Source: an uncultured bacterium
GTDB lineage: Bacteria > Omnitrophota > Omnitrophia > Omnitrophales > Aquincolibacteriaceae
DNA length: 64,000 nt
Direction of reading: 5' to 3'
NCBI GenBank assembly: GCA_964508905.1
Contig: CAZDVO010000004.1
Location: 11,956 to 75,955 of the forward strand
The notes below the pieces were generated by a model that searched no databases, was not told the DNA's origin, and was given only the letters and a program-made list of their open reading frames with translations. Positions 32,516 to 64,000 of this stretch are shown in pieces; position 1 is the first letter of the stretch, and every line of letters begins with the position of its first letter. The translations under genes were made by a program, and so were the position numbers.

Positions 32516-32534
32516 CCCTGTGTTGTCATGGTGA

Positions 32535-33554: not shown

Positions 33555-33557
33555 AGA

Positions 33558-34166
33558 TCATTCCTGAAGCTGTTTGAATATGGCGCCTATCCACGCGGGG
33601 GCATATCGGAAATCACGCATCAGTTGCTTTTTTTCATCCCCTTTCAACCGGGCTTTCAATCTCCTGATCACTTTATCGTCAACGTGGTTCATCCCGAGAT
33701 ATCGCAGAGCCTGAATCACCAGCCCGCTGACACATCCGGCTGTGGCCATATTCTTGGGGGTTGTTCTTTTCAATACAACCTGCTGATTCTTAACCCGCAC
33801 AATCCTGTTCGCGCCGTCGGTTAGAAAAATAATTTTCGCAGGTACCTGCTCGGTCAACCCCAGCAGATTGGCGGCATAGGCCCCGGACGGTTGAATTTTC
33901 AAGTTATCTCTTCCGGCCAATGCTTGAGCTATCCGCTCATAATTCGCCGGAAGATCGCCCAATGTCGGATGTTTCTCAGGATAATCATAGAGACCCCGTG
34001 CCAAACGACGAATGGTCCCGGATCTTACCAGCCGACCCAATGCTTGATCGATGGCTGCACGATTTCCGAGATCAAGAAAATAGCTTGGAGTAAATACCCG
34101 CCCTCTATTTTTGTCGCTAATCCTATTGAGTACTTTTCTCTCAATACTCTGTGCCATATATGCCAC
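33558..34166 (-). CDS. AbiEi-family antitoxin / transcriptional regulator
   Basis: 202 aa with an N-terminal wHTH-like segment 'AIDQALGRLVRSGTIRRLARGLY'; immediately upstream of and co-oriented with AbiEii (3-nt spacing). Confidence 0.7.
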   Translation of the reverse strand: MAYMAQSIERKVLNRISDKNRGRVFTPSYFLDLGNRAAIDQALGRLVRSGTIRRLARGLYDYPEKHPTLGDLPANYERIAQALAGRDNLKIQPSGAYAANLLGLTEQVPAKIIFLTDGANRIVRVKNQQVVLKRTTPKNMATAGCVSGLVIQALRYLGMNHVDDKVIRRLKARLKGDEKKQLMRDFRYAPAWIGAIFKQLQE

Positions 34167-34639: not shown

Positions 34640-36154
34640 TCATCTTCCCTTTTTCAGCTTTTGAAGCCGGTTAATCCCCTTCTTTGTTAACCGATATTTT
34701 TGCAATCGGCTGTTCGGCTTGTCGGGACTCGTGTACTTAACGTATTTTTCATCCAGCAATCCGCGTATAACTTTGTTCAATTGACCCGAAATGCCCTTTT
34801 GGCCTAGTCCCGCAGAAATGCTGGATTTACTCGAGATCTTGTTCTCCAAAAGAAGTAATACCCGGTCATCAAGCAACTCTGGCTGTGACTCTAGCCGTGA
34901 CTCTGGCTGTAACTCTGGCCGCGCCCTTGCCATTTTTGAGGCGCTTTTTCGCCACACCGTCAGGATAAAGAAGCCGCTCTCTAAACGGAACTCCGGCGCT
35001 TTCAGCCCGGCCTTCCGGCAATTGTCGAAGATATCAACAGTGCCGGTACCGGCTTTTTCGATATATTTCGTCAGGAAAAGAGGCTCTGCGATGAGTGGGT
35101 TCCCGGGCTGTGACGAATGCGGCTTGGACAGCCCGGCGATCGTAAGCGATGGAGGCAATGTCCCGGGATTCCAGATTTCAAGACGGTCCGCAAAAAGCAT
35201 GATCTCAACACTGGCATTGCTTGTGTAATCACGATGCGCCACCGCGTTGACGATACCTTCAGCCACAACCTCTTGGGGGATATCATACTCGACAGGCGCT
35301 TGCGGCCCCTTAGCACGAGTCCCCACAAAACGGTTGAGTTTCGACATCACAAAGTCAACGGCCTGATCGACCATCTCGAAGACCGTCCCCCGGTATATCT
35401 GATACGAAGCTATCGGCTTGAGTTTCTGCAGGCCATGAAAGTGCATGCACTTGACTTCGGAAGAAATAAGGAAACGCTGGGGCTTCTTACCGAATAAAAG
35501 TATCCCCGCATGGTTCGGCTTGTCTTTATCCAACAGATCCAGATGCGCCAGAACATCCATGACCGGCGTTCTCTCATCCAAAGCGAAGTCGCGCGCGTTC
35601 TTGGCACGTGTGAGAAACCAGCGGATCTTTTCCTCTGAAATATCCGACTTTGCGGAACCTCTGGAGGCCGTGGCGTCAAAAGGTCCTGTCATAATCCTGC
35701 CTGTCTCCAAAAGATGGCTTACGAGACTGGCATATACCGCAGCATTCAATTCCGGCAACGAATTAAAACGGCGTCGGATCAACTGATCCCCTGCCGTTTT
35801 CAACAACTCAAGCATTTTGGGATGACGATCCGCATCGCTTTCGCCCTTAACAAAAATCAACCGGCATTTACCGAGTTTAGACGCCAACAGGAACTCTTCA
35901 TGCGTCGGAGACCGTCCTTCCCGGTTCTCTTTGCCGTAATCGTCGCCGAATAGCCCGAGATAAATATCGCTCGCGCCGACTTCCTTCAAATAAACCTCAT
36001 CAGCCCGGCGATCACAAGCCGGAAGGTCTTCGAACAGAAAAATATCGAAAAACCTTCCCAACAGAGGATCGCCGGATATGTAATCCTTTAATCCCCTGCG
36101 CGCGTCCTTGAATTCCTTCTGAACGCTACTGATGAATATCTTGCGCTTGGTCAT
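34640..36154 (-). CDS. DUF4062 - AlbA_2 (Schlafen-like) - HATPase_c_4 - wHTH protein (paralog 1)
   Basis: The N-terminus 'KIFISSVQKEFKDARRGLKDYI...DIYLGLFGDDYG' is DUF4062-like. The middle 'VAEGIVNAVAHRDYTSNASVEIMLFADRLEIWNPGTLP' is the RecG-C/HATPase_c_4 signature; the C-terminus has a wHTH. The ATG at 36154 carries the SD GGGGAAGG; the ORF track starts at GTG 36172. Confidence 0.75.
   Translation of the reverse strand: MTKRKIFISSVQKEFKDARRGLKDYISGDPLLGRFFDIFLFEDLPACDRRADEVYLKEVGASDIYLGLFGDDYGKENREGRSPTHEEFLLASKLGKCRLIFVKGESDADRHPKMLELLKTAGDQLIRRRFNSLPELNAAVYASLVSHLLETGRIMTGPFDATASRGSAKSDISEEKIRWFLTRAKNARDFALDERTPVMDVLAHLDLLDKDKPNHAGILLFGKKPQRFLISSEVKCMHFHGLQKLKPIASYQIYRGTVFEMVDQAVDFVMSKLNRFVGTRAKGPQAPVEYDIPQEVVAEGIVNAVAHRDYTSNASVEIMLFADRLEIWNPGTLPPSLTIAGLSKPHSSQPGNPLIAEPLFLTKYIEKAGTGTVDIFDNCRKAGLKAPEFRLESGFFILTVWRKSASKMARARPELQPESRLESQPELLDDRVLLLLENKISSKSSISAGLGQKGISGQLNKVIRGLLDEKYVKYTSPDKPNSRLQKYRLTKKGINRLQKLKKGR
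34884..34931. repeat. In-frame 12-nt tandem repeat (x4) inside paralog 1 linker
   Basis: aactctggctgt / gactctagccgt / gactctggctgt / aactctggccgc; it encodes the PELQ/PESR/LESQ linker between the HATPase_c_4 and wHTH domains. Confidence 0.7.
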
Positions 36155-36172
36155 TTTGCCTTCCCCTGCCAC

Positions 36173-36290
36173 TCGATTAAAAAAGCCATGAACCTTTGCG
36201 GATTATACCAAAGACCCTACGGGTAGAGCTTAAAAAGTATAGCGCAAAGACGGGTGTAAGCGCGAGGCCAATGGTCAGCCAAAGTCCTTA
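36173..36290. repeat. Conserved ~120-bp upstream segment shared with 63297..63417 (about 90% identical), including a recombinase 3'-end remnant
   Basis: Aligns base-for-base with the region upstream of paralog 2. In copy 2 this DNA encodes the last ~20 codons of the serine recombinase ('...HWPRVYTRLCAILFKLYP*'). Copy 1 keeps '...HWPRAYTRLCAILFKLYP*' with its stop codon, but no recombinase body precedes it. Confidence 0.7.
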
Positions 36291-36395: not shown

Positions 36396-39300
36396 TTACG
36401 CGGCAATAGCAACAATGAAGTTGTTATCGTAGGTTCGCTGTAGAGCGTCCAGAAGGCTTTCTTCCACGGTCCAGAAACCGCCCTCTTGTCTTACCTCCGG
36501 CATGCGGATGTCTTCCCCTCCTGAAATGGCCCAAAGAAGCGCCATTGCGAGCGAGCCGCTCTTGTCACTATTCATTTTGAAAAATGACACTCGCTTACGC
36601 AGGCTACCGATCGACGTCCGCGAAGGCAGGACTTGTTTTGATAAATGAACGGTGGGGACATGAAATCTTGAAAAAACGTTTACTGCTTGATCAAGATTAC
36701 GCTCCGTTCTCGTAACGCGTTCAAGCTTAAGGAGCGCTGCCAGCTCTTCATCATGAACTTGCCCGTTTTCGTTATAAACAATGATGCGCGTTTCCGATCT
36801 TGAAAGCGCCACGAACAGATATTCCTGCTTCTGCGCTTCCGACAAACTCCCCCAATCCTCCGCATCCAAAAATACCGTCACCGGTTGCGTATTTCGACGA
36901 ACATTCTGAATGATTTGATCGCTTGGACCGGTGCTCACTCCGGGGATTGTCTCCATGCGCGTCTCGCTCCGCTCCCTAGGAACCCTGTTAGGGGAGCGAT
37001 TCGAAGGCACACGTTTTGGAGACCCGTTAAAACCGATCGCAACAGATTCTATGGCGGATTCGTGCTGTCCCGGAGAAGTTCTCAACGCGCGAGCTTTAGA
37101 GCGAGTTTCCCGGGCAGCTGATGCTGCAGGAATATTCCGGAGCTGTTCGGCTTCGCGGTCGGGATACTGCGCTAGAAATTCGTCACGCCACTTAATCACG
37201 TCATGCTCAGTAGGCGTCCAAAGACTCCGATACCAAGTCTTATCCTCCGGATAGTAATCCCGATGCAGGGGGTGAACTTTTTTGCCGGACAATAAAAATT
37301 GGACGCGCCTCACAAGAACCTGGACCAGCGCATAAAGCCGGTAGATCAAAGCCTCCACGCCCCTAGCCTGGCGCTTCAGATTTTTCGGTAAATAAGAGTC
37401 GTCCTTCGCGACAAGAAGCTTCCACTGTTTTTTTTCCGGCAAATACGCCACGACGTTGATACCGACATTCTGGGAGAAATCCGCAAAACCTCGCACCGCC
37501 GTATATTTTTTGACGGAAATTTGTCCAAAGGCCATCAATAGCGCAAGGATGGATCCGCCATGCGCTCCAATAGCTACGGTTTTTCCCTTAATTGAAGGGC
37601 TGTTTAATAAATCCTGAGAGAATTCCCGAAGGTCGCCCATCATTCCGGCCAATGAATCCAACTGCAAGGTGGTAACGGCTTCTGGGTATCGTTCGAAAAA
37701 ATTTTCTGGGTCAAAAATCACTTTGGCCATTTTGCCCGGAACACCTGCGACAGGGAATATACTGGTTTCAGCCAAACGAGAATCGACCGGCATGACACCC
37801 TGGCGCCCGCGACGCTTCCATAAGGGATACAGGGTTTGGTATGCCCTTTCCGAATCGCTGGATACAAAAATATCGAACGGAATTTTTGCGAGAAATTTAT
37901 CCAGGGCCTGGGCCTGTTTCTTTCCGCGAAAAGTTCCGGGGGAGAAACCATAACGTGTTTGCGTGACCTTCGTCAAATTTGAAATCGACTCTTGATGACG
38001 GATCGCATAGACCACAACCGCGTCAGGATGTGCTTCCCTCCAACCCGAATGCCAAAAATCCAGAACACTTCCATATTCCGGCGTCAGAAACGCCTTTTGT
38101 TCGGGGGTTAACTCACGATGAGGTTCCAGAGAAGTTGCCAAATCGCGCATTTCGGATCGGGGTTTTACTGCCGGCTCTTGCCCAGCAACGTCAGGCGTAT
38201 CCGCCGCCGCGCGGTCGGGCTCGGCCCCCTTCATCGCCGCTCCATCGCCCGGCGGGTTGTCTGTAGCTGTTTTTGCCTTGATAATTTTGAAAGCCGCGTC
38301 GACTTCTTCTAACAATAACGGCATCTCCTTCCCATTGAACATATCGACTATCTCACGACTAGTTATTTCTCTGCCCCTGTTTTGTTTAGTCACTTCAAGC
38401 CATTGATTAAAAATAAAGAGATCTTTGTCCGGGGAATTTATTGATAACTGTTTTATCAAAACAGGTAGCCCGATAATAAAGCCACGGTATCTATCACTGT
38501 CAAAACGAGGGTTACCTCGAATGATCTTTCTGTTTTCCGGAAGTTTCCCCATAATAGAATCTTGAACAAGTTCCGGCAAAATCATTAAAATATCCCCATT
38601 CCGAATACCAGACAACGCATCGCGAATGGCCATTGCTGAGGCGCCTTCATAATTCATGCCTCTTAAAAGCGTCTCTTGAAATAAATTTTCCTTTCTCGAA
38701 CTCTCCGCCGCGTTAACCTCTTCGGGAAGCAATTCGCTATCATGCGGCTCGCGCTCACTAAATAAAACATTGATAAAAACATTGTTAGTTTCTAAGAAGG
38801 CCTTATGCTTCCTCAAAAGTTCGGAAAACTTTAAAAGAGTATCAGGTTCTGGTTTCCCGTCTTTTATCTTCGCCCTATACTGATGCGTTCGCTCCCATAA
38901 TTCATAATCAGGCGCGAAATAATGCCTATGATCTGATCCTCCCAGATTGAAAGCGTAGAACCTTCCATTTTTTCTGCCCACGTTCAACTTAATCAGATCA
39001 ATAAAATCTGACTCTCCATCCGTAGAAGTCCCCTTTCCTATATCGCTGTATTCAAAGATATCCTTCACATAGCCCGTCATAAGAGCGATAAACTCAGCCA
39101 CAATATCATGCCTCTCTTCAATGGTCCTTCCGATGGCACCCTTCCTGTCATCCGCCCCCTGAACGCGAATAACCCCTATATCGGCCTTGCTTTGTACCAT
39201 GGCACGAAACATAGCCTCAATATGCCCGAAATGCAATGGATTGGCGGCTATAGAATAATAAAGCATTTTTGCATCCCCTGAATCCTCATCCGAACTAGTC

Positions 39301-42300
39301 AGTACGGGCGAACGATCATTGATCCGCACTCGAACATGCCGAGTTTCGCCATTGAGCCGCAACACAGCCATATTCCAAATTTGTAATTTTAAACGTCGGG
39401 CGATCAGCTCTGCTTGGGCTCTTTGAAATGAACTACGCGGCTGCCTTATCATGTCTGAGATCGCCTGATTAAGGCCAACAAAATCCCCTCCTATGAGTGC
39501 CTTTAATTTTTCCGGTCGGTAAATGCTCCTAGCATATTCAAACTCCTGATAAACCTTTTCATCCGCTGACCCACGATATAAAGCATGAATAAATGCCCTC
39601 GTGAGAGAAGCTTTGTCTTTCGATCGTTTCAAGCGTTTGAGGAACGAGGTTTCCATGTAGATCTTGCTGACGCCATTTTCCCTTACCCTTGCGATTCCGA
39701 AAGTAATTTTATCAGTCTCGATCAAATAGACCTTACTGTCTTCCTTAATTCCTAAAAAATCCTTTGCCACATTCAATTCTCTGTCAAATTCCACGGTCGG
39801 CCTTTCGGATCTTCTGGCCGCAGCCAGATTTTTCCTGAGCTCAAACAAGGACATTCTTTCATAGTAGCCATGATCAGCTAAGCGAACATTACGGTTTGCC
39901 AGCATTTCCAGAACATCCCGCATTAGACTGCGGCTATAAAACTCAATATTATCTGATCGATAAACAACCTCATGCTGATCTTCATTAAGGCGAATTGTCA
40001 GAATCGAGCTCTTCCCTGACGGGCCAATGAAATAGATCTCCCATCGATCACCCTGTCTTTGGGCCTTCTCAAAGCGCAGATCAACCCGTTTAGCGATCTC
40101 TTGCCCCAGCAATGCGGGAAATTCATCTTTGTTCTGAAGAACAACAAGATGGTCAAAAGAATCTAGATCAAAAGAAGAAATTTTCTTTTCAAGAGCACCC
40201 GGCGCCGGATCTCCTTTGTCAGACCCTTTGATAACTTTCACTACAGGCGCAAATTCAGCTCCTAGCTTGGAGAATTTCTCGTCTATTCCATCCGCTATCG
40301 CTTCGGATATCTTTCTATAAACCCATGGATCAGTTTCATCTAAATAGCCGGCCACTTCGAAGCCGCGCTCATGAAGACCGTACGATGTCGCCCCATCATC
40401 CACCGTTGTTACCAAAACCCCGTTGGGCAGTATCATTAAATATTTATAGGTCTTTTCTTCCTGCAGGGTCTTGTTCATTCGAAGGACCTGATCCGCAGTA
40501 AAAGAGCTATCTTCGCGAGCAAGGTACGCACGCACTCTTTCCCGCATCAGTTGAACAGCCTCATCATGAAGAAGGGCAAATTCATCGTAGGTTATCCCCA
40601 GAGATTTCTTGAGTTCATTCGGGAAACTTTTGAGCGGCTGAAATATATTGCATTTCCATATGGGAGGCCGTATCGACGGGTAGTGTTGTTTTGTTTTATT
40701 AAAAACATCCAAAATAATACCTTCAACATAAGGCAGGAGATCCGTCTTGACCTTATCAATGTTTTCTCTCGTAACCGTGGTGGTTATCACGATTTCTATA
40801 TCTTTATCCCTCTGAGCAGCGATTGTCTTGATGCTGGCTATTACTTCCGGCCATAACAAAGGGATTTCCCCTCTGAATGAATGCGGGTCGACCGTATCCA
40901 AAGAAAAACAAAACTGATCGACATAACTGATAAATTTTTCTAAAGGAACAAGATGCGTGCTCTTCCGGTCTTCTTTATAAAGCTCAATAAAGATCTCGCC
41001 CCCGACCTTTTTAAATTGCAGGCCGTTCGTGTTAACAAAAACCTTCATTCCTTTAGATTTTACATAAGCAATAATTTCATCAAACCGAGGGACTATAGTC
41101 GGTTCGCCGCCGCTAAAGGATATGCCTTCAATGCCTGTCTCAGCCAAAAGGTTAATGGTATGCAATATTTCTTTAAAAGACGGCTCCTTTGTCCCGTATT
41201 TAGCGATCTCTTTCTGTGAATAAAAATTTCTTGCCCAGCATTGCCGGCATTTTAATTGACACCGCAGCGAAGGAAGAAAGTCTATAAGTGAAGCGAATGT
41301 CCCTTCCCGGAAAGGGACTGCTCCCTCGGGGATACTCTTGTGTTGCCGGGCTAATAATACAGCTTGAGGCTTTGCTGCTTCCCGCATCTCGGAGCGGGCG
41401 GTTGTATTTTCCGGATTCTCTTTTTCCGCCGCAACTTTTGCTTTCAGGCGTCTGACCCGCTCGTCTATTCTCTCGATCTCCGCATCGTAGTACTCCCGGA
41501 CCTTATGATGCCTGGCCGCTTCTTTCTGGGATCTCAAGATATTTTTAACACCTTCCATGTCGATCTCATAATCCCGGAGCGCGTGCTCCCGGTCGTCCCT
41601 CCACGCCGCCTCGACCTTTCGATCGATCTTTTCTTCCTCCCCTCGTCTTTCAAAAGTTCGTTTCAGATACTCATGGTCAGCATCATGCGAAAGAGCCACC
41701 ACCTCTTCCGTGCTCAGGTCGAAGATCAATTCAGGGTTGTTACCAAAAACTTCAGGATGGGCTTTTGCGGTCTCGATCATGAGAGGATGCATCTTTTTCT
41801 GATAGCGGGTAATCAGCTGATGGGCATCCTCCATGAAAGAAAATTGTTGGACGTTGAGGGAGACAATCTTCCTGAGCGTTGGATAGCTTCCCAGGATAGT
41901 CATGAATTTCTCCTGATTTTTTTCTTCCTTAGCTTTCTCACCTCGGAGGTACTGTATCGTTTGGGATATTTCATCATCCAGCGCCTCCATGCTGACCGAA
42001 GGCTTCTCGCCGGCATTCGACATCCTGATCCTCGTAAAAAGTCGCAACGCGAGAAAAAGTTTCAGATCCAATATTCGGATCTTTTCACGAATGGTTTTTT
42101 CCGACTTAAGTTTCCAGACATCAACGGGTTCCCCATTCTTATCGCAAAGTCTTTCGATCAGCCGCAAAAGCTGGGGGGCCGCAATCGTTTCCGCTAAGTC
42201 CGAATCGGAAGCAAGGTTTGCTTGAAACTCATGCAGAAATGACACTTCATCATCACCTTTCCGGATATCTTCATCAGAAGCTTTGTAGTTATGCATATAA

Positions 42301-45300
42301 TCCGCCAGCGCCTGATAAACATCTCCCGTCCTCCGGGCGCGGGCATCTCTGACCCTTGTTTCGATGGCGCCAAGCGCTCCTTCTTCAAAAAGTTTCATGA
42401 CAGCCGCATCTTCCCGGATCATCTCCTCAATGGCGGCTACTTCTTTTACCTTATCCCAATGGGTCAACTTTTTCATCCAATGCTGTTCTGTTTCAGGCGT
42501 TAACTGAAGCGCCGCTCTCTCCAAACCGGCACGACTCATTGACAATTCGAATGCGTTAAAAAACCGCGCCTGCGGATACCAGAATTTATCCTGAAAAGTC
42601 GCGTGAAATGGTCGCGCAATGTGCATCCAAGCCAGCAATTCCACTAACCATGCCGTAGCCTGTTGCATCTGGCCACCACTTAAAAGCCCGCTGTCGGGAA
42701 GCCCACTAAAGAAGGCGTCTGCCTCCATGAACCGCTCAACACGCTTCTTGAGGACCGAATCGTAATCAACCAATTCCCGCCGATACAGCGGATTCTGAAG
42801 TCCGCTAGGTTCATTAATAAGCAACGAGTAAATGATCCTGTCCTTAAATTTTCGAGGCATGGTTTTGAATTCGTTTGTTTTGAATAAATTATTGAGCATT
42901 TCGGCGTATTTTTCAAAAGCCCGGTAATAATAATCCAGTTCAAAATAACCAAACTCTGTCTTGGGGCGCCCCCTCCACTCGCCTTCAAAATCCGGCATGT
43001 AGTTCTCTTTACCACCCTCCCTATAGAACCCTTCGAAATCTCCGTCGCTAAGCCAGACATCCCTCGGCTTAGGCGCGGGCTTAGCCAAAAGCTCCGCCGC
43101 TTGTTTCCACATTTTAAGTTCAATGCGAACTGTTTTGACCTTAACCGCGGGAGGCATTCCGTCATCCCGATAGTAGATGGTCCTTGTCCCGGAATCGAGT
43201 ACGACGGACTGATCGTCAAATTTCTTCAGGTCTTCGACCGCATTTTTAGAACCGACAACACATGCCTTATCCCGCTCACGAGCCGTTACCGCCGCATGAC
43301 TGGTCGTATTTCCGTTCTCCGTGATAACTCCCGCCATTCTGAAAAAAGCATTGTCCCAGCTGTTATCCGTCTCCTGGGTCACGAGAATATCTCCGGCCTT
43401 GATCTTCCGCGCGATTCTTTGGCTTTCGGCACGCTTCTGATTCTCTGGCAGATCCATACGAACCGGCCTTACTCTCAAAACACCGATCGCGACGCTCGGG
43501 AAACCGACAACAGCATCTCCAGGTAAAGTCATTTTTTTTACGGTGCTATCCATATCGCTCTCATCCACTGTCTTGATCTCAATAAAGCCAGCCTTGCTAA
43601 TGGTCGTTTCAGGCCGTGTCTGGACAACATGGATGACCCCCGATTTATCTTGCGCGAATTCAATATCCACGTTGGCGACATCCTTCATGGAGTTATATTT
43701 ACTCCGAATCCTCTGGGATATCTTCGCCAAACGCATAACAGCTTCCATCTCCAGAGAAGGCATCATTTGTTCATGCGGATCCGTGATCTTAACTCTCACA
43801 GTGCCATGCTCTCCCGTTATGATCTTCTCCGTCTTTGGCTGAGGCTGCTCCTCAAGAATGGTTTGCGCGTCAGGACTAATTGTCCACTCATCCGCCAAAC
43901 CAGACCCTGACACCACGCCTTCACCCAGTCCGGGCTTGGCATTGATCCTGAAAGCAGGTCGACCGGTCGTGGTATCCACGGAAAAAACATTGCCAGCCGA
44001 CTTAGCATCCACCATTTTTAATATCACAACCGGCATCATGGGAGTTTCTGTCATCTGATTCAAGATCCTGTAATTCACGAAACCACTATTAAAAAGACTG
44101 GCCCACACCTGAATAACAGCTCTGCTAACCTGCTTCGTATTATTCCTAGCCAGGACGCTATCTGCTTTTCCTGCACAAGCTGCCTTTGAGGAATCTTCAA
44201 CGCTAGCCGAACTCCTAACGGCAACACTGACCTCGGTCGCATCGCCTTGAAGGGATCCCATCATTTTCGAGATATCTTCCAAGAGTGGTTTGGGCAATCT
44301 GACCAACCACCGGATCCCAGTTCGGATCATCCAAGCCTCTATTTGAATTTCTCCTTGGAGAAACAAATCCAGGAACCAAAAGCGGGCTCCCGCAATAAGC
44401 TTTCTCCAGGCGGACAGTTCATTTTCCATCGCCTTGGCTTCCTTTGCCTTGCGATCCCTCAGAACTATCAGCTTCAAAGATAAAATTCGTAATCGTTCGA
44501 TCAGTGCTCCCAAAAACGGATTCCTTAAAACAACTTTTTTAAATACCTCAGCGCGAAGGATATAACCTTCCGGGACCCTCACAGGGTCAGAGACATTGTC
44601 CCGAGCTTCTTCAGCGGCAAGCATTCGCAGATAATGAAGATTGGCTCCCTTCCCTCCGGATACCGATTTATTGCCGCTGTCAGGATGGTCCAGATGGACC
44701 AAAGACTGACCAATCTCGAGGGGGAGATGTTCTGATACTGAAATATTCCGAACAACTTGCCTGGAAACAGTTTCGTAAATAGCATCGCTAATACTGGGTT
44801 GTAAATTCTCTTTTGCAGAAGATTCCGCTGAGAAAGGAACTGAAAGATCGCTGGCCAAAGCTGCGCCTTCTTCTCGTAGCTTGTAAAAAACATCCCACCA
44901 CAGCCTGAATCCATAGGCATCCGCGTTCAGGTTCTTCAATTCGTCCTCGGTCATAGGCATTTTTTCCCTATCGGCGAGTTTTCTCGGCTCTCTGAACTTG
45001 TCTGCCACCTTTTGATCTTCTAAAGCATTCAGGAAATAAGTGAATAAAGTGCCGGTTTCGAAGATTTCGGCCGGAGGTAATAATGGTACTGATGTTGCCT
45101 GTGCGGCTTCTTGTGCCAAACTGGCAAGCGCCTCACGTAGAGCTGTATCATTTTTTGTAACATAAATGACAAGCGCATGTTTTACAGGATCGTAATCCAG
45201 AACCAGCTCTTTACTGACAAGATCCTTTTGCTTTTCATAAAAAGAGCTCAGCTTACCGGCCTCATTCGTGTTCAAAGCCTGAAAGGTATAACTTTGAATG

Positions 45301-48300
45301 TAGCGGCTTTGTTCACCGGGTTTCCCGATCCTCTTCAGTCGTGACGCATCAGAACCGATCTCGAGATAATCTTTAAGAACCTGCTGAGCAGAATTTGTAA
45401 TGTTTGTGTCCGGTGCGATTTCACTACCTAAAGCTACTGAAAATTTGGAGGGAAATAAATCGCTGTAAGGCCCTTGTTTTTTAACTAAAACCCGTCCCTT
45501 GGTATCAAAGACCATCACTTGGACGCTTTGTCTTAAACCTTTTGCTTGTTGCCGCCTTCCATGGAGATTGATCAAATGACGCAATTGTGAGATCGCAAAA
45601 TAGGTCGAAAGGAAGTGAGGGTCGGGTTCCCCGACAATGTTCCCGTTATTCAAGATTGTGATGTCTTTTTCAATGACATTGAGCAAACCTTCCGCATCCT
45701 CATAACGGGCTTTAGCAACCATCTCCCTGACCGCGACGACTCTGTCGGGAAGTCCGGCCAGCAGACAACTGATAGCATGCGCCTGCCTCAGCATCGCAAG
45801 GACCTCGGCCGACCCGAAATAAACCGCCGTCAAATCCTCCGCATACTTCGCATGATCCGTGGAAAACATATCCGCAACGGCATCAATGGTTAGGAATTTC
45901 TTGGCATCAGAATCGATCAGCTTCAAAACACCTGAAGTGAGTGAATTCACTGAATTTTCTGCTGTTCTCCGCTGAGCTTCGTGAGATTTTACCTTCGTTT
46001 TAACCGCTTTCGCCTCGGCCTCGGTCAGAGGATAGACCAAAAGCGTGCTCTTTTCGTAAGTCACCGCGGTTAACAAAGATGGTATATGAGTTTCACTACC
46101 GATCGCCAGGACTAACCTGTCTTGATCCGCAGCAAGTTCAGCGCTGTCCTTTAGAATATAAACAGTGAGGGAGTGTTTCGTTTCTTCATCAAAATCCAGG
46201 GTGATACCCTGAGCTCCAGCCGATACTTTGTGTATTTCAAAAGCTTTCTTAAGAGATTCGGCTTCGCTCTGGTTAAAAGCCGGAAAAACATAGCTTCGCA
46301 TATAGTGCAAATGGGTATCTTCGCCGCCGACCCGCAGGATTCGCTTTGGATCCGCCTCGATTCCTATCTCCTGCCGGATTGAGGCCTTCACTTTTTCTTC
46401 AACCGCCGCGACATCAGCTCCCGCAGATGGTTTGGCATTGGCGGACACGGAATATTTGGAAGCAAAGAGTTGTTTATAAGGACCGCGCTTCTGGAGAAGA
46501 ATCTTGCCTTGGGGATCGACCGCCAGAATCTGAACACTTTGTTTCTGCGCAACATTATCGGAAATCACTTTTTTCTTAGCGACTTTCTCAAGCAACAGTT
46601 TTGCCGAAAAGTAATTCGCCAAGAGATATTTATCGACCTTGCTATAAGACCATTTCTGGACTAGCTTCCCGAGCGCTTCAACAAGAGGCTCCAACTTCCT
46701 CGCCGCCGCGGTGAAATCCATTTTCGAAAGCAGTTCTCGCGCCTCAACCAGCCCTTCATAAAGCTCTAAGGTATTCCGATCCTCTTGGGTGCTTTCAGCT
46801 TCCCGCATCTCGGAGCGAAGTTGGGCATTTCTATCCACTGTGTGCGCAGGTTGCATTGCTTGCTGAAGATCAACAAGACGACGCTCGATCAGTTGAGGGT
46901 CAGAGTTACCCGCGTCAACAGAAGAAGCAATCGCATGAAGTTTTGCACGCACAAATTCTTCGTTGCCGGTAGCGGCTAAGTAGGGGTAGCCCGGTGCTCG
47001 GTTGGCACGGGTAACAAGGAACGGGGCTTCGAAGGGGTGCAGTCCATCAGACATCAATCGTTTGTAATAATCCTGGTGACGCTTATCAATAGCCGTGATC
47101 TTGGGAGAAATGACTACATAAGAAAAACCCTGCTGCCTAAACATGTCCTTGATAGCGCTGGCGTGAAATCCCCCAAAAACCAGTATGGCGGCTTCCTCCT
47201 TGCCCTCCTGAAAGGCTCTGATGTGCTGATCGATCGCCCCATCCCGCTTCTGCGCCACATTGTAGAACCGAACCGCTTCCTTGATGTGCCGCTCCCACTC
47301 TTTGGAAAGAACTAGCGACCGGCGAGTCAGAGACACAATGAAATCCACTAATTTCTGCGTCTCAAGTTTTTCAAGCGCGTCTTTGGCCGCTTCATATTCC
47401 GATTGCGTGAGTTGGATCTGGTTGAGCCGTTTGAGCAAGCTCAAACCCTGATAATAATCAAAGATCTTTTTGTCCCGGTCATTTTGAAGGAAGGTCTTTG
47501 AAAGTCCCTGCTCCAGACGGCTCGCCTCTTCAAAAATAACGCGGGAATCCAGAGCGTTCAATTGCCCGATCAGCTTTTGGTCCCGGGTGGTTTCAGCGGC
47601 AAGAAGGATCGTAAGGGCGGGATATTCCCGGAAAAAGGAATCCGGATCCGCGACATTCTTCCGGTATAACGCTCGCAATGCTTTGAGATAATCGAGAAGG
47701 GGCCGTTCCCCTTTTGAGTATCCTTCCCGGAAGCGAAGCCAGGATTTCAGTTCCTTCGGAAAATACCGGTTGGCGAGGATCAGGATGTGCTTAAGAAGCT
47801 CATCAAGATCCGCTTCAGTGTCCTTCCGCTTCCTTGAAGAATCCCGATAAGCCTCGATATTTTTTGAATAGAGATCAAGATTTTCAACCCCGATCAGCTC
47901 AAAATCCTGTTCCCGGTTAATGTGCGCGTATTCCGCGCCTCCGATCCTCAATTTGTCCAAAAGAAAATAAGAGACCTTTTGTTTAATCTCGGGATCTTTG
48001 ATGAATCCAAAAAATTTTTCCGTGGGAACAGGGCCCTCATAGCCTTCCTCAAAAACGGTCTTGATCCCCTTTTCTTTTACGAAATTACCGATAAGCTTCG
48101 CGATGTTCTCCTGGGCTTCAAGAGAGTCGTGAGCATCCTGAATAAAAAGAATGGTCTTGCCGGAAGCTCCTTGAAAAGATTCTTCGATTTTTCCAAGTCC
48201 GGGAGGGACCGCGATCATGCCATTAAGGACTTGAGCGGTCGAAACGGAGACCGGATCACCTCCCGGAACATTGGAATTTTGCGCCTGCCGACCGGCGGGC

Positions 48301-48422
48301 ATAGCAAAACTGGTTGGTGTGGGAATAAGAATCTGCGTAGCGACAAAGGAAAGGACGATGAAAGACGCAATGGTCTTTAGAGAAAGTGAGGGCCCAGATG
48401 TTGCTTTTCGGAACAACTTCAT
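36396..48422 (-). CDS. Giant 4008-aa multidomain protein with signal peptide/TM, PEP-utilizing ATP-grasp plus phospho-His module, tandem Nudix-like repeats, radical-SAM core, HxGH nucleotidyltransferase and histidine-phosphatase domains
   Basis: A single uninterrupted 12,027-nt ORF. N-terminal hydrophobic segment 'TIASFIVLSFVATQILIP'. 'SVSGGKGANLHYL' (aa ~1253) and 'GNTTSHAAVTARERDKACVVG' (aa ~1704) are the PPDK/PEP-synthase ATP-grasp and mobile-His motifs. 'CQLKCRQC...SFSGGEPT' (aa ~2388-2441) is the radical-SAM CxxxCxxC plus GGE motif. 'ANPLHFGHIEAM' (aa ~3060) is a (H/T)xGH nucleotidyltransferase motif. 'YAIRHQES...GAHGGSIL' (aa ~3473-3625) are the RHG/HGG histidine-phosphatase motifs. Two ~130-aa internal repeats start 'SVQILAVDPQGKILLQKRGPYKQLFASKYSV' and 'SVQVMVFDTKGRVLVKKQGPYSDLFPSKFSV'. 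Confidence 0.85.
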   Translation of the reverse strand: MKLFRKATSGPSLSLKTIASFIVLSFVATQILIPTPTSFAMPAGRQAQNSNVPGGDPVSVSTAQVLNGMIAVPPGLGKIEESFQGASGKTILFIQDAHDSLEAQENIAKLIGNFVKEKGIKTVFEEGYEGPVPTEKFFGFIKDPEIKQKVSYFLLDKLRIGGAEYAHINREQDFELIGVENLDLYSKNIEAYRDSSRKRKDTEADLDELLKHILILANRYFPKELKSWLRFREGYSKGERPLLDYLKALRALYRKNVADPDSFFREYPALTILLAAETTRDQKLIGQLNALDSRVIFEEASRLEQGLSKTFLQNDRDKKIFDYYQGLSLLKRLNQIQLTQSEYEAAKDALEKLETQKLVDFIVSLTRRSLVLSKEWERHIKEAVRFYNVAQKRDGAIDQHIRAFQEGKEEAAILVFGGFHASAIKDMFRQQGFSYVVISPKITAIDKRHQDYYKRLMSDGLHPFEAPFLVTRANRAPGYPYLAATGNEEFVRAKLHAIASSVDAGNSDPQLIERRLVDLQQAMQPAHTVDRNAQLRSEMREAESTQEDRNTLELYEGLVEARELLSKMDFTAAARKLEPLVEALGKLVQKWSYSKVDKYLLANYFSAKLLLEKVAKKKVISDNVAQKQSVQILAVDPQGKILLQKRGPYKQLFASKYSVSANAKPSAGADVAAVEEKVKASIRQEIGIEADPKRILRVGGEDTHLHYMRSYVFPAFNQSEAESLKKAFEIHKVSAGAQGITLDFDEETKHSLTVYILKDSAELAADQDRLVLAIGSETHIPSLLTAVTYEKSTLLVYPLTEAEAKAVKTKVKSHEAQRRTAENSVNSLTSGVLKLIDSDAKKFLTIDAVADMFSTDHAKYAEDLTAVYFGSAEVLAMLRQAHAISCLLAGLPDRVVAVREMVAKARYEDAEGLLNVIEKDITILNNGNIVGEPDPHFLSTYFAISQLRHLINLHGRRQQAKGLRQSVQVMVFDTKGRVLVKKQGPYSDLFPSKFSVALGSEIAPDTNITNSAQQVLKDYLEIGSDASRLKRIGKPGEQSRYIQSYTFQALNTNEAGKLSSFYEKQKDLVSKELVLDYDPVKHALVIYVTKNDTALREALASLAQEAAQATSVPLLPPAEIFETGTLFTYFLNALEDQKVADKFREPRKLADREKMPMTEDELKNLNADAYGFRLWWDVFYKLREEGAALASDLSVPFSAESSAKENLQPSISDAIYETVSRQVVRNISVSEHLPLEIGQSLVHLDHPDSGNKSVSGGKGANLHYLRMLAAEEARDNVSDPVRVPEGYILRAEVFKKVVLRNPFLGALIERLRILSLKLIVLRDRKAKEAKAMENELSAWRKLIAGARFWFLDLFLQGEIQIEAWMIRTGIRWLVRLPKPLLEDISKMMGSLQGDATEVSVAVRSSASVEDSSKAACAGKADSVLARNNTKQVSRAVIQVWASLFNSGFVNYRILNQMTETPMMPVVILKMVDAKSAGNVFSVDTTTGRPAFRINAKPGLGEGVVSGSGLADEWTISPDAQTILEEQPQPKTEKIITGEHGTVRVKITDPHEQMMPSLEMEAVMRLAKISQRIRSKYNSMKDVANVDIEFAQDKSGVIHVVQTRPETTISKAGFIEIKTVDESDMDSTVKKMTLPGDAVVGFPSVAIGVLRVRPVRMDLPENQKRAESQRIARKIKAGDILVTQETDNSWDNAFFRMAGVITENGNTTSHAAVTARERDKACVVGSKNAVEDLKKFDDQSVVLDSGTRTIYYRDDGMPPAVKVKTVRIELKMWKQAAELLAKPAPKPRDVWLSDGDFEGFYREGGKENYMPDFEGEWRGRPKTEFGYFELDYYYRAFEKYAEMLNNLFKTNEFKTMPRKFKDRIIYSLLINEPSGLQNPLYRRELVDYDSVLKKRVERFMEADAFFSGLPDSGLLSGGQMQQATAWLVELLAWMHIARPFHATFQDKFWYPQARFFNAFELSMSRAGLERAALQLTPETEQHWMKKLTHWDKVKEVAAIEEMIREDAAVMKLFEEGALGAIETRVRDARARRTGDVYQALADYMHNYKASDEDIRKGDDEVSFLHEFQANLASDSDLAETIAAPQLLRLIERLCDKNGEPVDVWKLKSEKTIREKIRILDLKLFLALRLFTRIRMSNAGEKPSVSMEALDDEISQTIQYLRGEKAKEEKNQEKFMTILGSYPTLRKIVSLNVQQFSFMEDAHQLITRYQKKMHPLMIETAKAHPEVFGNNPELIFDLSTEEVVALSHDADHEYLKRTFERRGEEEKIDRKVEAAWRDDREHALRDYEIDMEGVKNILRSQKEAARHHKVREYYDAEIERIDERVRRLKAKVAAEKENPENTTARSEMREAAKPQAVLLARQHKSIPEGAVPFREGTFASLIDFLPSLRCQLKCRQCWARNFYSQKEIAKYGTKEPSFKEILHTINLLAETGIEGISFSGGEPTIVPRFDEIIAYVKSKGMKVFVNTNGLQFKKVGGEIFIELYKEDRKSTHLVPLEKFISYVDQFCFSLDTVDPHSFRGEIPLLWPEVIASIKTIAAQRDKDIEIVITTTVTRENIDKVKTDLLPYVEGIILDVFNKTKQHYPSIRPPIWKCNIFQPLKSFPNELKKSLGITYDEFALLHDEAVQLMRERVRAYLAREDSSFTADQVLRMNKTLQEEKTYKYLMILPNGVLVTTVDDGATSYGLHERGFEVAGYLDETDPWVYRKISEAIADGIDEKFSKLGAEFAPVVKVIKGSDKGDPAPGALEKKISSFDLDSFDHLVVLQNKDEFPALLGQEIAKRVDLRFEKAQRQGDRWEIYFIGPSGKSSILTIRLNEDQHEVVYRSDNIEFYSRSLMRDVLEMLANRNVRLADHGYYERMSLFELRKNLAAARRSERPTVEFDRELNVAKDFLGIKEDSKVYLIETDKITFGIARVRENGVSKIYMETSFLKRLKRSKDKASLTRAFIHALYRGSADEKVYQEFEYARSIYRPEKLKALIGGDFVGLNQAISDMIRQPRSSFQRAQAELIARRLKLQIWNMAVLRLNGETRHVRVRINDRSPVLTSSDEDSGDAKMLYYSIAANPLHFGHIEAMFRAMVQSKADIGVIRVQGADDRKGAIGRTIEERHDIVAEFIALMTGYVKDIFEYSDIGKGTSTDGESDFIDLIKLNVGRKNGRFYAFNLGGSDHRHYFAPDYELWERTHQYRAKIKDGKPEPDTLLKFSELLRKHKAFLETNNVFINVLFSEREPHDSELLPEEVNAAESSRKENLFQETLLRGMNYEGASAMAIRDALSGIRNGDILMILPELVQDSIMGKLPENRKIIRGNPRFDSDRYRGFIIGLPVLIKQLSINSPDKDLFIFNQWLEVTKQNRGREITSREIVDMFNGKEMPLLLEEVDAAFKIIKAKTATDNPPGDGAAMKGAEPDRAAADTPDVAGQEPAVKPRSEMRDLATSLEPHRELTPEQKAFLTPEYGSVLDFWHSGWREAHPDAVVVYAIRHQESISNLTKVTQTRYGFSPGTFRGKKQAQALDKFLAKIPFDIFVSSDSERAYQTLYPLWKRRGRQGVMPVDSRLAETSIFPVAGVPGKMAKVIFDPENFFERYPEAVTTLQLDSLAGMMGDLREFSQDLLNSPSIKGKTVAIGAHGGSILALLMAFGQISVKKYTAVRGFADFSQNVGINVVAYLPEKKQWKLLVAKDDSYLPKNLKRQARGVEALIYRLYALVQVLVRRVQFLLSGKKVHPLHRDYYPEDKTWYRSLWTPTEHDVIKWRDEFLAQYPDREAEQLRNIPAASAARETRSKARALRTSPGQHESAIESVAIGFNGSPKRVPSNRSPNRVPRERSETRMETIPGVSTGPSDQIIQNVRRNTQPVTVFLDAEDWGSLSEAQKQEYLFVALSRSETRIIVYNENGQVHDEELAALLKLERVTRTERNLDQAVNVFSRFHVPTVHLSKQVLPSRTSIGSLRKRVSFFKMNSDKSGSLAMALLWAISGGEDIRMPEVRQEGGFWTVEESLLDALQRTYDNNFIVAIAA

Positions 48423-61437: not shown

Positions 61438-61724
61438 AACACCCCCCTTTTTAGAAATAAATCTTTTACCACTTTTATTCAGGTCTTTGTTTTAAAGTTC
61501 TTCTCAATATTAATTCCCTTCTTCTTTCTGTCGATAGGCTAAAAACCATTTCCCAAGATTGCACAGCCAATCATTTTCACATCGAATTCGAAAATTCACG
61601 GCATTCCGCTCGCTCTCAGTTTCATATCATATCATTTCCCCGTGCTTCCGTTTCCCTTTTTCCAAGGAGACACAGCTCTTGAGGCCTTTCATCCCCCGGT
61701 CAGAATCCATACGGCCTTCATGAA

Positions 61725-63278
61725 TCACAACTTTGCCGTGAAGCACGCAGCCCTTTTGCGCCCTTGTAAATACGCAACCCCTTTTTCCGTCAACCGGTAC
61801 TTCTGATTACTGCTTTGGGGTTTGTCAGGAACCGTCATTTCGATCAATCCCGCATCTGCGAGAGGACTAAGCACCTGATGCCTGAACTTGGTGCGATCTG
61901 TCCGCCCAGTGATCTTCATGAGATCGGCTATCCTGCTCTCAGCCTGACACTTATGCAATATCTCAACTTGGTGCTGACTTAGTGCCAACTTGGTGCCGAC
62001 TTGGTGCCGACTTGGTCCCTGAACCTCGTGGGTGATGGGCCGGGCTTTCGGAGGGGCCTTCTTCTTGCGACGGATTATCAGGACGAACTGACCTCCCCGC
62101 TGCTGAAACGAAGGCTCCGGGATCTTCATTTTCTTGCACAGAGCGATCATGTCGATCGTTCCGGTTCCCGCCCGTTCAATGTATCTCGCCCAGAAAAGCG
62201 GATCACTGATCAGCGGGTTTCTCGGCACAGAGGCATGGGCTTTCCGTAGGGTCGCCGGCGTCATCCCTTCAGGAAGTGCCCCTGGGTTCCAGATCTCAAG
62301 TCGATCCGCAAACAGCATGACCTGAACGCCTGCGTTGGATGTGTAATCCCGATGCGCGACCGCGTTAACGATTGCTTCGCGGATCACCATTTTGGGTATC
62401 TCATACGATACATCACTCGCAACAGCGGTTTTGCTGGGCGTGACCGTGCGATCCAGTTTACCGAGCACGAAATCAACAGCTTCATCAACCTGTTCGAACA
62501 ATGTTCCCCGGTAGGTTTGGTACGAAGGGATCGGCTTTTGCACCTCGGTCCCGTGAAAATGCATACATTTAACCTCGGCACATAACAGGGCGCGGAACTT
62601 CTGGGGATTCCTGCAGAACAACAGGACCGCGGCATGCGTCAGCTTGCCGTTATTGAATAGGTTCAAATGAGTGAAAAGCTTTTTCGCCGAAGTGCGTGGC
62701 GGCAAGGGGAACTTGCGTTCGGCCCGGGCAGCCTCAAGAAAATTCCCAACGGCAGATTCGTCAATGTCGCCCAAAACAGCATTGCGGCAGGAAGCAGCAT
62801 CGAACGGAACGGTCTGCAAAAGACACTGCTCCTCCAAATACTGCACAAGGGCTGCATACAGTTGCGAGATCAATTCCGGGGCGTTGGAAAACCTCCGGCG
62901 AATAACCTCGTTGCCGGCTCTGTTGATCAATTTAGCTGTTTTAGGGTGACGGTCTTTTTCAGTCGTGTTTTTGACAAAAAGAAGCCGCGTCTTTCCGCGC
63001 TCCGTCGCCTCCCTGAATTCCCGCTCCGTAGCCGAAGATCCGCGGGCATCTTCAGCTCCGTATTCATTGCCGAGAAGACACACATAGATATCGCAATCCC
63101 TGACTTCATCGATATAGACGGCGTCCGGCCTGCGGTCCTGGGCGGGAATATCTTCGAAAAGAAAACAGTCAAAGTAGCGCCTGCACAAGGGATCGCCGGA
63201 GATAAAATCCCTCAAGGCGGCCCGCTCATCCTTGAACTCCTTCTGAACGCTGCTGATGAATATCTTGCGCTTGGTCAT
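61725..63278 (-). CDS. DUF4062 - AlbA_2 - HATPase_c_4 - wHTH protein (paralog 2)
   Basis: Same start peptide 'MTKRKIFISSVQKEFKD' and the same domain order as paralog 1; 'VMLFADRLEIWNPGALPEG'; ATG at 63278 with a conserved SD. Confidence 0.75.
   Translation of the reverse strand: MTKRKIFISSVQKEFKDERAALRDFISGDPLCRRYFDCFLFEDIPAQDRRPDAVYIDEVRDCDIYVCLLGNEYGAEDARGSSATEREFREATERGKTRLLFVKNTTEKDRHPKTAKLINRAGNEVIRRRFSNAPELISQLYAALVQYLEEQCLLQTVPFDAASCRNAVLGDIDESAVGNFLEAARAERKFPLPPRTSAKKLFTHLNLFNNGKLTHAAVLLFCRNPQKFRALLCAEVKCMHFHGTEVQKPIPSYQTYRGTLFEQVDEAVDFVLGKLDRTVTPSKTAVASDVSYEIPKMVIREAIVNAVAHRDYTSNAGVQVMLFADRLEIWNPGALPEGMTPATLRKAHASVPRNPLISDPLFWARYIERAGTGTIDMIALCKKMKIPEPSFQQRGGQFVLIIRRKKKAPPKARPITHEVQGPSRHQVGTKLALSQHQVEILHKCQAESRIADLMKITGRTDRTKFRHQVLSPLADAGLIEMTVPDKPQSSNQKYRLTEKGVAYLQGRKRAACFTAKL
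61967..62021. repeat. 11-nt tandem repeat (x5) inside the coding sequence of paralog 2
   Basis: cttggtgctga / cttagtgccaa / cttggtgccga / cttggtgccga / cttggtccctg. The unit length is not a multiple of 3. Confidence 0.7.
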
Positions 63279-63296
63279 TTTGCCTTCCCCTGCCAC

Positions 63297-63417
63297 ACGA
63301 TTAAAAACGCCACGAACCTTTGCGGATTATACCAAACTGCTCACGGGTAGAGCTTAAAAAGTATGGCGCAAAGGCGGGTGTAAACGCGGGGCCAATGGCC
63401 ATCCGAAGGTGCGCAAA
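63297..63417. repeat. Conserved segment paired with 36173..36290 (overlaps the 3' end of the recombinase-2 coding sequence)
   Basis: About 90% identity to copy 1 across ~120 bp. Confidence 0.7.
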
Positions 63418-64000
63418 AGCACACGTAGCTTCTTCGGGCTTTTGCCTCCGGAATCGCCTGTTCTTTCGTCTTTTCGCTCGTTTTCAACCATTTCATCCCC
63501 TCTTCATAGCAAGTCTTCCACGGCTCATTCAACTCAAACTTCACGATCTCCTGATTCTGGATAGTGATCGACTTGAAGACAATCCGCATGAACGTCTTTA
63601 TGAGATAATCCAATTGGTGATTGTCGCTCTCGGGCGTACTCCGCAATCTTAAAAGAAAATCCTGCGTCGCCTTAACCAGATTGACGGAATTGCGCTTGTC
63701 CAGAATCTTAAGATGAATAGCCTTGATATCCTGCTTTAGTTTTTTCTCCTCATTGCTTAAAAGCTCGGCTCGCTCTTTATAGAGCCCCATGTTTATTTTG
63801 TCTTCTGAAAATAACTCGTATATGGCCTTCTGTTTTTCAACATTCTTTCTAAGTAGCGCCTCTTTTTCCTCCAACTGCTCCATATATATCCGTTCCGGCT
63901 CGGATGCGTTAAGCCGGATCATGTCGCCTAATTCTTCCAGCACGTGAAGATTTTTCCTGATGACTTCAACAATATCCCAGACCTGCTTATTAACAGCGTC
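63341..64000 (-). CDS. Second large serine recombinase, C-terminal part (gene continues beyond the window end)
   Basis: The C-terminus 'FKSITIQNQEIVKFELNEPWKTCYEEGMKWL...CFCAPSDGHW' aligns with the C-terminus of recombinase 48616..50415 ('FKKLVIDHQQIASFELYEPFQGMYDKAL...CLLKPSDDKW'); the open frame continues to the window edge. Confidence 0.7.
   Translation of the reverse strand, partial: DAVNKQVWDIVEVIRKNLHVLEELGDMIRLNASEPERIYMEQLEEKEALLRKNVEKQKAIYELFSEDKINMGLYKERAELLSNEEKKLKQDIKAIHLKILDKRNSVNLVKATQDFLLRLRSTPESDNHQLDYLIKTFMRIVFKSITIQNQEIVKFELNEPWKTCYEEGMKWLKTSEKTKEQAIPEAKARRSYVCFCAPSDGHWPRVYTRLCAILFKLYP

Follow-up and report, generated by a model that had tools for sequence, protein, structure and literature searches.

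We describe here an 11-nucleotide (nt) coding tandem repeat in a probable defence gene of an uncultured Omnitrophota bacterium (GenBank assembly GCA_964508905.1), located in a 64,000-nt stretch of contig CAZDVO010000004.1 that was analysed as a whole and is called the window below. The gene, one of two paralogs in the window and termed paralog 2 (61725..63278, minus strand), encodes a protein of 517 amino acids (aa) from its ATG, in which DUF4062 is followed by a COG2865-type core with HATPase_c_4, a linker and a winged helix. Five 11-nt units with the consensus GGCACCAAGTC (61965..62019, minus) lie between HATPase_c_4 and the C-terminal winged helix. We favour, with moderate confidence, the reading that this tract is a junction minisatellite prone to recombination and slippage, which represents the pan-bacterial (GGCACCAAGTC)n at this locus and is placed at the 5' boundary of the 'DRTKFR' type of Fic-like_C module. 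Coding tandem repeats are normally short-lived and lineage-specific; an 11-nt coding repeat kept base for base over at least 15 phyla, read in three frames and sited exactly at the point where a domain is swapped or lost, is unusual.

The tract and its conservation at the nucleotide level

The tandem repeat pointed out in the preliminary description of this DNA is real: Tandem Repeats Finder reports it at 61966..62016 with a period of 11, 4.6 copies, 87% matches and a score of 81, the top score in the window. On the minus strand its units are GGGACCAAGTC (unit 1, 62019-62009), GGCACCAAGTC (unit 2, 62008-61998), GGCACCAAGTT (unit 3, 61997-61987), GGCACTAAGTC (unit 4, 61986-61976) and AGCACCAAGTT (unit 5, 61975-61965). 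The perfect period-11 run covers 29 nt, i.e. 2.6 units, with units 3-5 each carrying one or two mismatches. None of 100 third-order Markov simulations of the 64-kb window yielded an array scoring at least 81 (maximum 63). With up to one mismatch allowed, the unit occurs four times in the window, every time inside the tract, as against 0.72 expected occurrences.

Since the unit length is not divisible by three, successive units fall into different frames, and three consecutive units specify the 11-aa peptide GTKSAPSRHQV; the consensus unit is open (stop-free) in all three frames. The tract translates as GPSRHQVGTKLALSQHQV and continues directly into EILHKC. In an AlphaFold2 model of paralog 2 (116 sequences, mean predicted local distance difference test score (pLDDT) 89.8), residues 414-431 (PITHEVQGPSRHQVGTKL) have pLDDT below 50 and are predicted to be disordered, and the winged helix is formed by helices at 435-443 (QHQVEILHK), 450-457 and 462-475 and a beta hairpin. 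The disordered segment and the position of helix 1 together indicate that the 5' units code for a tether, whereas the last one and a half units code for the cap and start of helix 1. The tether between the domains (aa 404-434, 61977..62069, minus) is thus coded only in part by the repeat, through its 5' three to four units. Hence, the earlier placement of the repeat in a simple free linker has to be revised: according to the model, the tract region is more than that, with its 3'-most units providing the cap and start of helix 1, and its peptide is a cross-phylum motif.

This motif, QVGTK[LS]A[LP]SRHQVEIL.KC, is kept in homologues from several phyla that are only 55-58% identical. The conservation extends to the DNA: in a protein-ascertained set of 80 metagenome loci, collected through peptide patterns outside the tract, genes that are only 52-58% identical in protein carry the unit as GGCAC[C/T]AAGT[C/T], with the same codons for S (AGT), R (CGG), Q (CAA), A (GCA) and L (CTA or TTG). 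For gene pairs with less than 65% protein identity, it was determined how often aligned identical residues are encoded by identical codons. This codon identity reaches 0.84 (1046/1246) in the tract window against about 0.38 gene-wide (range 0.24-0.49), with values of 0.62-0.73 just 5' of the tract and of 0.33-0.51 over most of the winged helix. That the C-terminal module as a whole was recently transferred horizontally, giving rise to this pattern, was considered and rejected, since the codons of the winged helix are at background level except for the DRTKFR segment (0.60).

An exact search with the two-unit 21-mer GGCACCAAGTCGGCACCAAGT retrieved 103 stretches of species-representative genomes belonging to at least 15 phyla, against an expectation of about 0.3 in 596 Gb with both strands counted. 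All 38 of the full open reading frames (ORFs) bearing the tract have Fic-like_C, 35 have HATPase_c_4, 24 AlbA_2, five DUF4062 and one Fic. Thus, the tract travels with one winged-helix subtype (GR.DRTKFR) and not with a particular N-terminal architecture.

Within the winged helix, the third helix begins with RTKFRHQV, encoded by CGCACCAAGTTC AGGCATCAGGTG (61865..61890, minus; the codons for DRTKFRHQV), and this DNA resembles two degenerate units. Codon identity of the DRTKFR segment across distant homologues is 0.60 versus about 0.38. These codons may be a relic of the tract or a conversion partner for it. The 11-nt repeat was also encountered outside the family: in DNA that appears to be non-coding and precedes an unrelated gene in Mycolicibacterium chubuense DSM 44219 (L130) and in Bacteroidales (L107/L158), in the linker of an unrelated ORF on a viral contig (L186) and within a protein of more than 2300 aa; the loci recorded for such occurrences further include L137 and L083 (Desulfobacterium). 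Two likenesses of the unit, to a Chi-like TGGTG core and to a tRNA 3'-end-like GCACCA, were abandoned as the 12-nt arrays described next lend them no support. Literature searches with the repeat peptides QVTPQVTPQV, GTKSAPSRHQV, SRHQVEIL and EVTPEVTPEV found no papers, and the AlbA_2/HATPase_c_4 literature yielded nothing on the linker.

Short tandem arrays at this junction are present in most homologues whose tail is of the Fic-like_C type; they are missing from those with another helix-turn-helix tail (e.g. L064 and L070) and from a few others (L012). The units are ACCCCGCAAGTC in the TPQV type, ACCGAACAAGTC in TEQV, ACAGGACAAGTC in TGQV, ACCCCGGAAGTC in TPEV, CCGACCCAGTCA in PTQS, CAGCCAGAGTCA in QPES and GAGGCCCAAGTC in EAQ(V). 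Each type is paired with a particular winged-helix subtype. Paralog 1 (ORF 34640..36172, minus; 34640..36154 and 504 aa from the ATG at 36154) combines the QPES type with an 'ISGQLNKV'-type winged helix, in an otherwise identical architecture. At the same junction it has four in-frame 12-nt units of the CCAGAGTCACAG type (34871..34918, minus), read as PELQ PESR LESQ PELL, for which Tandem Repeats Finder gives period 12 and 3.8 copies at 34876..34921; the same QPES-type array recurs in L069. The preliminary description had correctly recognised this fourfold in-frame array and its position in the protein, with coordinates (34884..34931) displaced by about 10-13 nt. Its proposal that the differing repeats of the two paralogs reflect ongoing turnover was mistaken. 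As each subtype goes with a repeat type found throughout the family, the two paralogs differ in carrying two old module types and not through recent turnover.

The arrays have the DNA core (C/G)(A/C)AGTC in common, and the 12-mers share AGTCAC, which is read in two different frames. In the QV dipeptides of the linkers, Q is encoded by CAA in 90% of cases versus 32% elsewhere in the same genes. Likewise, the hexamer CAAGTC accounts for 59% in the linker versus 17% elsewhere (Fisher p=2e-12, with the repeat units not being independent observations).

Module exchange and unit indels at the junction

Comparison of the window with its nearest relative, L109, whose gene encodes P0001 (92% protein identity), reveals a sharp step at the tract: DNA identity is 0.90-1.00 from 63390 to about 62011, and downstream of this point it falls to 0.65-0.75 through the winged helix. 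Units 4-5 of L109 are of the consensus form where the window has variant units, which places the crossover inside the tract. Against L004, a member of the window's own lineage, identity remains at 0.87-0.95 throughout. Further mosaic pairs are L122/L141 (identity 0.58 upstream and 0.99 downstream), L087 and L114 versus L157 (0.57 and 0.87-0.88) and L095/L110 (0.56 and 0.87). Further, relatives that are 64-75% identical to the query display five different C-terminal subtypes.

Winged-helix modules with the tract but without an upstream COG2865 core within 8 kb are present in L096, L102 and L133, the latter two being Spirochaetia chromosomes. These modules may be orphan or differently fused. A full-length gene was not found near them within the 8-kb loci, nor does the window contain such a coreless module.

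Copy number of the unit varies from 2 to 10 across the family, with changes of both frame-preserving and frame-disrupting kinds. L020 and L028 differ by an in-frame 11-aa segment at the tract. L085 is separated from L184 (92-95% nucleotide identity) by a single indel, exactly one missing unit, and L091 has one unit fewer than L101. These natural one-unit alleles agree with the expectation, already put forward in the preliminary description, that gain or loss of a non-triplet unit would remove the winged helix. In silico, loss or gain of one unit in paralog 2 gives products of 434 or 436 aa, which terminate within the tract or at its end and have no winged helix.

Among the 80 protein-ascertained metagenome loci, no frameshifted allele was seen in those where the core could be located. 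As that set is biased towards intact genes, a DNA-ascertained set was used for a blastx test of the frame: 54 of the 59 informative loci are in frame across the tract, four are out of frame (L085, L091, L156 and L159) and one has a defect elsewhere, with 21 further loci being uninformative. L139 was entertained as a tract frameshift and discarded, its defect lying downstream of the tract. Contig names indicate that all four out-of-frame loci were assembled from short reads, which are nonetheless longer than the tract; collapse during assembly is therefore an unlikely cause. The perfect-repeat run in the DNA-ascertained set has a median of 31 nt and a maximum of 70 nt, with 53-70 nt in some species.

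At close range the tract of paralog 2 is constant. In the cluster at 90% identity or above, the (consensus) assemblies contain no tract-length variant among the members that reach the tract, of which some are present on up to 15 contigs; L001-L003 and L082 are identical to the window in the tract or across the matched region. Seven modelled variants (-1, +1, -2, +2 and +3 units, with one or both start codons) had no exact match among about 15 billion proteins, a collection in which the intact 517-aa protein is present on 9 contigs. The array of paralog 1 is similarly invariant in a 6-member cluster. In these consensus assemblies, the window allele appears as an intact, stable 'on' form. A 4-aa (12-nt) difference in the linker upstream of the GTK motif was observed in the cluster of P0002 at 90% identity or above, where P0135/P0138 have STQSATQS and P0136/P0137/P0140/P0141 have STQS; here the copy number has changed in frame over a short time.

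Weighing the explanations

Taken together, these observations lead to the proposal that the array provides a patch of near-identical DNA common to otherwise diverged members of the family. Homologous recombination at this patch swaps the winged-helix modules, as is observed in the mosaics, and slippage or unequal exchange alters the number of units, as is seen between genes. Such changes keep the frame if three units are involved, while with one unit the protein is truncated and loses the winged helix. Recurrent exchange and homogenisation, along with exposure of every position of the unit to selection in three frames, would then hold the synonymous sites constant. If so, this would be a concrete and testable DNA-level mechanism by which bacterial immune sensors shuffle specificity or regulatory modules, and the 21-mer would offer a simple sequence tag to find such modules. 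In a bolder form of the proposal, which we put forward only tentatively, GGCACCAAGTC would be a selectively maintained pan-bacterial DNA device: a three-frame-readable junction repeat acting as a universal coupling, through which the winged-helix sensor module is exchanged, or lost upon a slip by one unit, in a large family of defence-type proteins (COG2865, Fic and DUF4062 fusions). Its synonymous conservation would here stem from second-order selection or molecular drive for recombinability, not from protein function.

Several points weigh against the junction minisatellite. Synonymous drift in the tract of L004, from the window's own lineage, implies that the constraint is not absolute. The occurrences in unrelated or non-coding contexts (L130, L107 and L186) are unaccounted for by a role at module junctions. 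The 12-nt arrays prefer CAAGTC despite being free of any three-frame constraint, so that a further DNA-level factor may act; this bias is not fully accounted for by homogenisation and three-frame selection. The mechanism holding the synonymous sites constant is itself inferred. Finally, the mosaic evidence comprises only a handful of pairs, some of which could also result from a winged helix that evolves faster; this would not explain L122/L141 or the abrupt change against L109.

Of the alternatives, the one that fares best, albeit still unlikely, is that of a true contingency locus, in which slipped-strand mispairing toggles the gene at high frequency between a full-length form and winged-helix-less or off forms and thereby hedges defence against its cost. 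Phase-variable defence genes are an established class, and a non-triplet unit whose one-unit change truncates the protein at the tract, the natural one-unit frameshift alleles in relatives, the conservation of the tract at the DNA level and the perfect runs of 53-70 nt in some species would all be consistent with it. However, the window allele has only 29 nt of perfect repeat, length variants are missing among those members of the close cluster that reach the tract, some of them present on up to 15 contigs, and none of the seven modelled variants is found among the 15 billion proteins, as opposed to the intact form on 9 contigs. Moreover, with 54 of 59 informative loci in frame, off alleles are far fewer than is typical of contingency genes. 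As any repeat sequence could slip, this explanation also leaves the conservation of this particular unit unexplained. Thus, the label of 'classic contingency locus' given in the preliminary description is not sustained: classical phase variation of paralog 2 is unproven, and fast phase variation of an allele with 2.6 perfect units is unlikely.

A second alternative, which we consider quite doubtful, takes the tract for a sequence-specific nucleic-acid element with a secondary coding role, either a putative head-to-tail array of binding sites (about one helical turn per unit) for the adjacent winged helix or a partner, e.g. in autoregulation, or a signal at the RNA level. It could accommodate the confinement of synonymous-site conservation to the tract, the 11-12-bp period with the core CAAGTC in repeat types read in different frames, the separate repeat type of each winged-helix subtype, and the presence of the unit in non-coding and unrelated contexts. 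Yet the pairing of repeat type and subtype is equally expected from physical linkage, and no copy of the unit is found in the promoter region or elsewhere in the window. Copy number ranges widely, from 2 to 10, and the tract drifts in L004. As for RNA, no structure is predicted at the tract (z = -0.67), and Rfam gives no relevant match there. A sub-threshold RF_site9 match at 61440..61478 lies outside the gene and was taken as chance.

Still less probable is a protein-only explanation, under which GTKSAPSRHQV/GTKLALSRHQV would be conserved for its part in structure or interaction, while the periodicity of the DNA would be a fossil of how the motif arose and serve no function today. Retention of QVGTK[LS]A[LP]SRHQVEIL across phyla, the contribution of the last units to helix 1 and the stable length in close relatives speak for it. 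Selection in one frame, though, cannot account for an identity of 0.84 at third codon positions in genes that are otherwise at about 0.38, and a copy number of 2-10, the predicted disorder of the 5' units and the clustering of breakpoints and unit indels at the tract are likewise at odds with it. Even if the repeat were a mere relic, a lesson would remain: a non-triplet coding repeat is by itself no evidence of phase variation. Chance or a compositional artefact, for which only the modest copy number speaks, can be set aside with near certainty, as none of the 100 simulated windows reaches the observed score and the 21-mer is found 103 times against about 0.3 expected.

Architecture, genomic context and comparison with known systems

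The ATG at 63278 is the likely start of paralog 2, being preceded by a GGAAGG ribosome-binding site and matching relatives that begin with MTKRK. A 523-aa GTG form (61725..63296, minus), for which exact look-up found no record, was discounted as an artefact of the ORF caller; the ATG form is P0124. Profile searches on the 523-aa form recovered DUF4062 at residues 11-97 (E=2.9e-22), HATPase_c_4 at 323-408 (E=3.6e-20) and Fic-like_C at 444-503 (E=2.2e-14). In the 517-aa protein, the DUF4062 domain (PF13271), a TIR-like NADase-type domain, spans aa 5-91 (63006..63266, minus), and the Fic-like_C winged-helix module of the 'DRTKFR' subtype (PF21247) spans aa 435-517 (61728..61976, minus). Between them is a COG2865/DIP2311-like core (aa 160-403, 62070..62801, minus) made up of a middle domain and HATPase_c_4 and lacking AlbA_2, as delineated with Pfam, PADLOC and Foldseek. 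Paralog 1 is 49% identical in protein and has the same three Pfam domains. The DUF4062 scores of the two paralogs are 79.1 and 61.9 bits against a cut-off of 24.7.

The earlier domain order, DUF4062-AlbA_2-HATPase_c_4-winged helix, therefore needs amendment: its first and last two elements were recovered by the profile searches, whereas AlbA_2 has no Pfam match at E<=0.1 in either paralog. A classical member of the family, L081, has SLFN_AlbA_2 at residues 12-121 and HATPase_c_4 at 300-385. Residues 166-500 of paralog 2 align with its residues 146-472 (37% identity, 346 aligned positions). As this alignment begins only after the AlbA_2 domain of L081, DUF4062 takes the position of AlbA_2. The core of paralog 2 also matches the PADLOC models for pAgo-associated PNTD (E=1.5e-15), and the best match of the model to a solved structure in Foldseek is DIP2311, a COG2865-type protein (PDB 3LMM, E=2e-13). 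Foldseek matches of the N-terminal domain to TIR-STING, the SARM1 TIR, BcmB and nucleoside deoxyribosyltransferases point to a TIR-like fold, in which E42 and E87 are invariant among the 116 sequences; either of them may be the counterpart of the catalytic glutamate, with KpSwz E97 and TEP1 E1008 as references. The family is large, with at least 4983 matches; an NCBIfam search for a name for the protein gave no match.

DUF4062 has been described as a TIR-like NADase effector of the anti-phage systems Swarozyc, Evangelion and NIR/NIR-Avs, in which it is fused to variable auxiliary regions, with the auxiliary region being needed for defence in Eva01 and KpSwz (bioRxiv 10.64898/2026.05.01.722283, 10.64898/2026.06.25.731849, 10.64898/2026.09.04.749371). 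Text searches of these three preprints gave no mention of Schlafen, AlbA or HATPase. The genomic neighbourhoods make a link to defence, as suggested in the preliminary description, plausible for the present proteins too. Paralog 1 is adjoined by AbiEi, AbiEii and a PRiA4_ORF3-family gene. On contigs near-identical to paralog 2, the genes upstream comprise a SoFic-like Fic, a lipase (Lipase_3), Vsr, a type II restriction endonuclease, Dcm and an IS-type integrase. In the window their place is taken by an ORF without a Pfam match that runs off the end (63341..64000, minus), so that the upstream context of paralog 2 varies between strains. The homologue P0025 (L184; GCA_030018005.1, JASEGT010000004.1) is encoded between a BrxC/PglY_N-DUF6079 gene and a gene for a 945-aa N6_N4 methyltransferase, i.e. 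inside a BREX-like operon. Homology and context make it most likely that the protein acts as an anti-phage sensor-effector encoded by a single gene, in which an exchangeable winged helix would serve as sensor or regulator next to a COG2865-type core and a TIR-like NADase of the DUF4062 kind.

Some further features of the locus were observed. The AbiEi/AbiEii type IV toxin-antitoxin (abortive infection) pair and the PRiA4_ORF3 gene (31823..34166, minus) form a small defence islet directly downstream of paralog 1. Directly upstream of it is an ORF of 4008 aa (36396..48422, minus) with PPDK_N, PEP-utilizers, Radical_SAM/Fer4_12 and His_Phos_1 domains and large stretches without a Pfam match. The 5' leader and promoter region of paralog 2 (63279..63407, minus) has high identity with 36155..36285 of paralog 1. 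It is part of a near-identical segment of about 220 nt (63185..63407 and 36061..36285, minus; 90% over a 241-column alignment and higher within the segment), which comprises a leader of about 130 nt, with a TGGTATAAT extended -10-like motif and a ribosome-binding site, and about the first 30 codons. Counted from the ATG, both paralogs agree in residues 1-17. Homology of the window to the 97-99.9% identical contigs L001-L003 and L082 ends at 63407. The shared segment and this end point suggest a second, putative exchange or insertion boundary at the 5' end of paralog 2.

Two known kinds of element, frame-shifting coding repeats and conserved module-exchange junctions, meet in the tract. Their combination, an 11-nt three-frame unit with nucleotide conservation across phyla at a mobile winged-helix module of defence-type proteins, appears to be new; no description of such junction repeats was found in the searched literature. 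With simple-sequence contingency loci, such as Neisseria opa with its CTCTT pentamer in the part for the leader peptide, or the phase-variable restriction-modification genes mod/hsdS, the tract shares a non-triplet repeat within the ORF whose consensus is open in all frames, a shift of the downstream frame upon unit gain or loss, and a gene that is probably involved in defence. It differs from them in its few and imperfect units (2.6 perfect ones), in the lack of length polymorphism in close relatives and in the preservation of the unit sequence across phyla, which contingency tracts do not display. In addition, a frameshift here removes only the C-terminal module rather than silencing the gene.

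A parallel in position is offered by the junctions marked by VENN in CdiA, by the PxxxxDPxGL boundaries of Rhs and by the central conserved region and TAEL repeats of type I HsdS. There, as here, a conserved stretch is found exactly between a conserved body and a variable C-terminal module, and the identity of close relatives falls sharply at this point; in HsdS, the boundary likewise contains a short coding tandem repeat of variable copy number. Unlike in those systems, an 11-nt repeat at the DNA level, translated in three frames, here takes the place of a fixed peptide motif, no arrays of silent orphan cassettes were found beside the gene, and the exchanged module is a winged helix instead of a toxin or target-recognition domain.

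At the level of the whole protein, Swarozyc, Evangelion and NIR-Avs present the same single-gene combination of an N-terminal TIR-like DUF4062 with a variable auxiliary region, as well as defence-island neighbours. In the present case, however, the auxiliary region consists of the COG2865-type core and winged helix. Conversely, proteins of the COG2865/DIP2311 type (AlbA_2 - HATPase_c_4 - winged helix; PDB 3LMM) have a homologous core and winged helix, and many of these classical members bear the same 11-nt tract, but in the window proteins their Schlafen-type AlbA_2 N-terminal domain is replaced by DUF4062. This replacement on a COG2865 core constitutes an undescribed architecture for the newly recognised DUF4062 NADase defence family.

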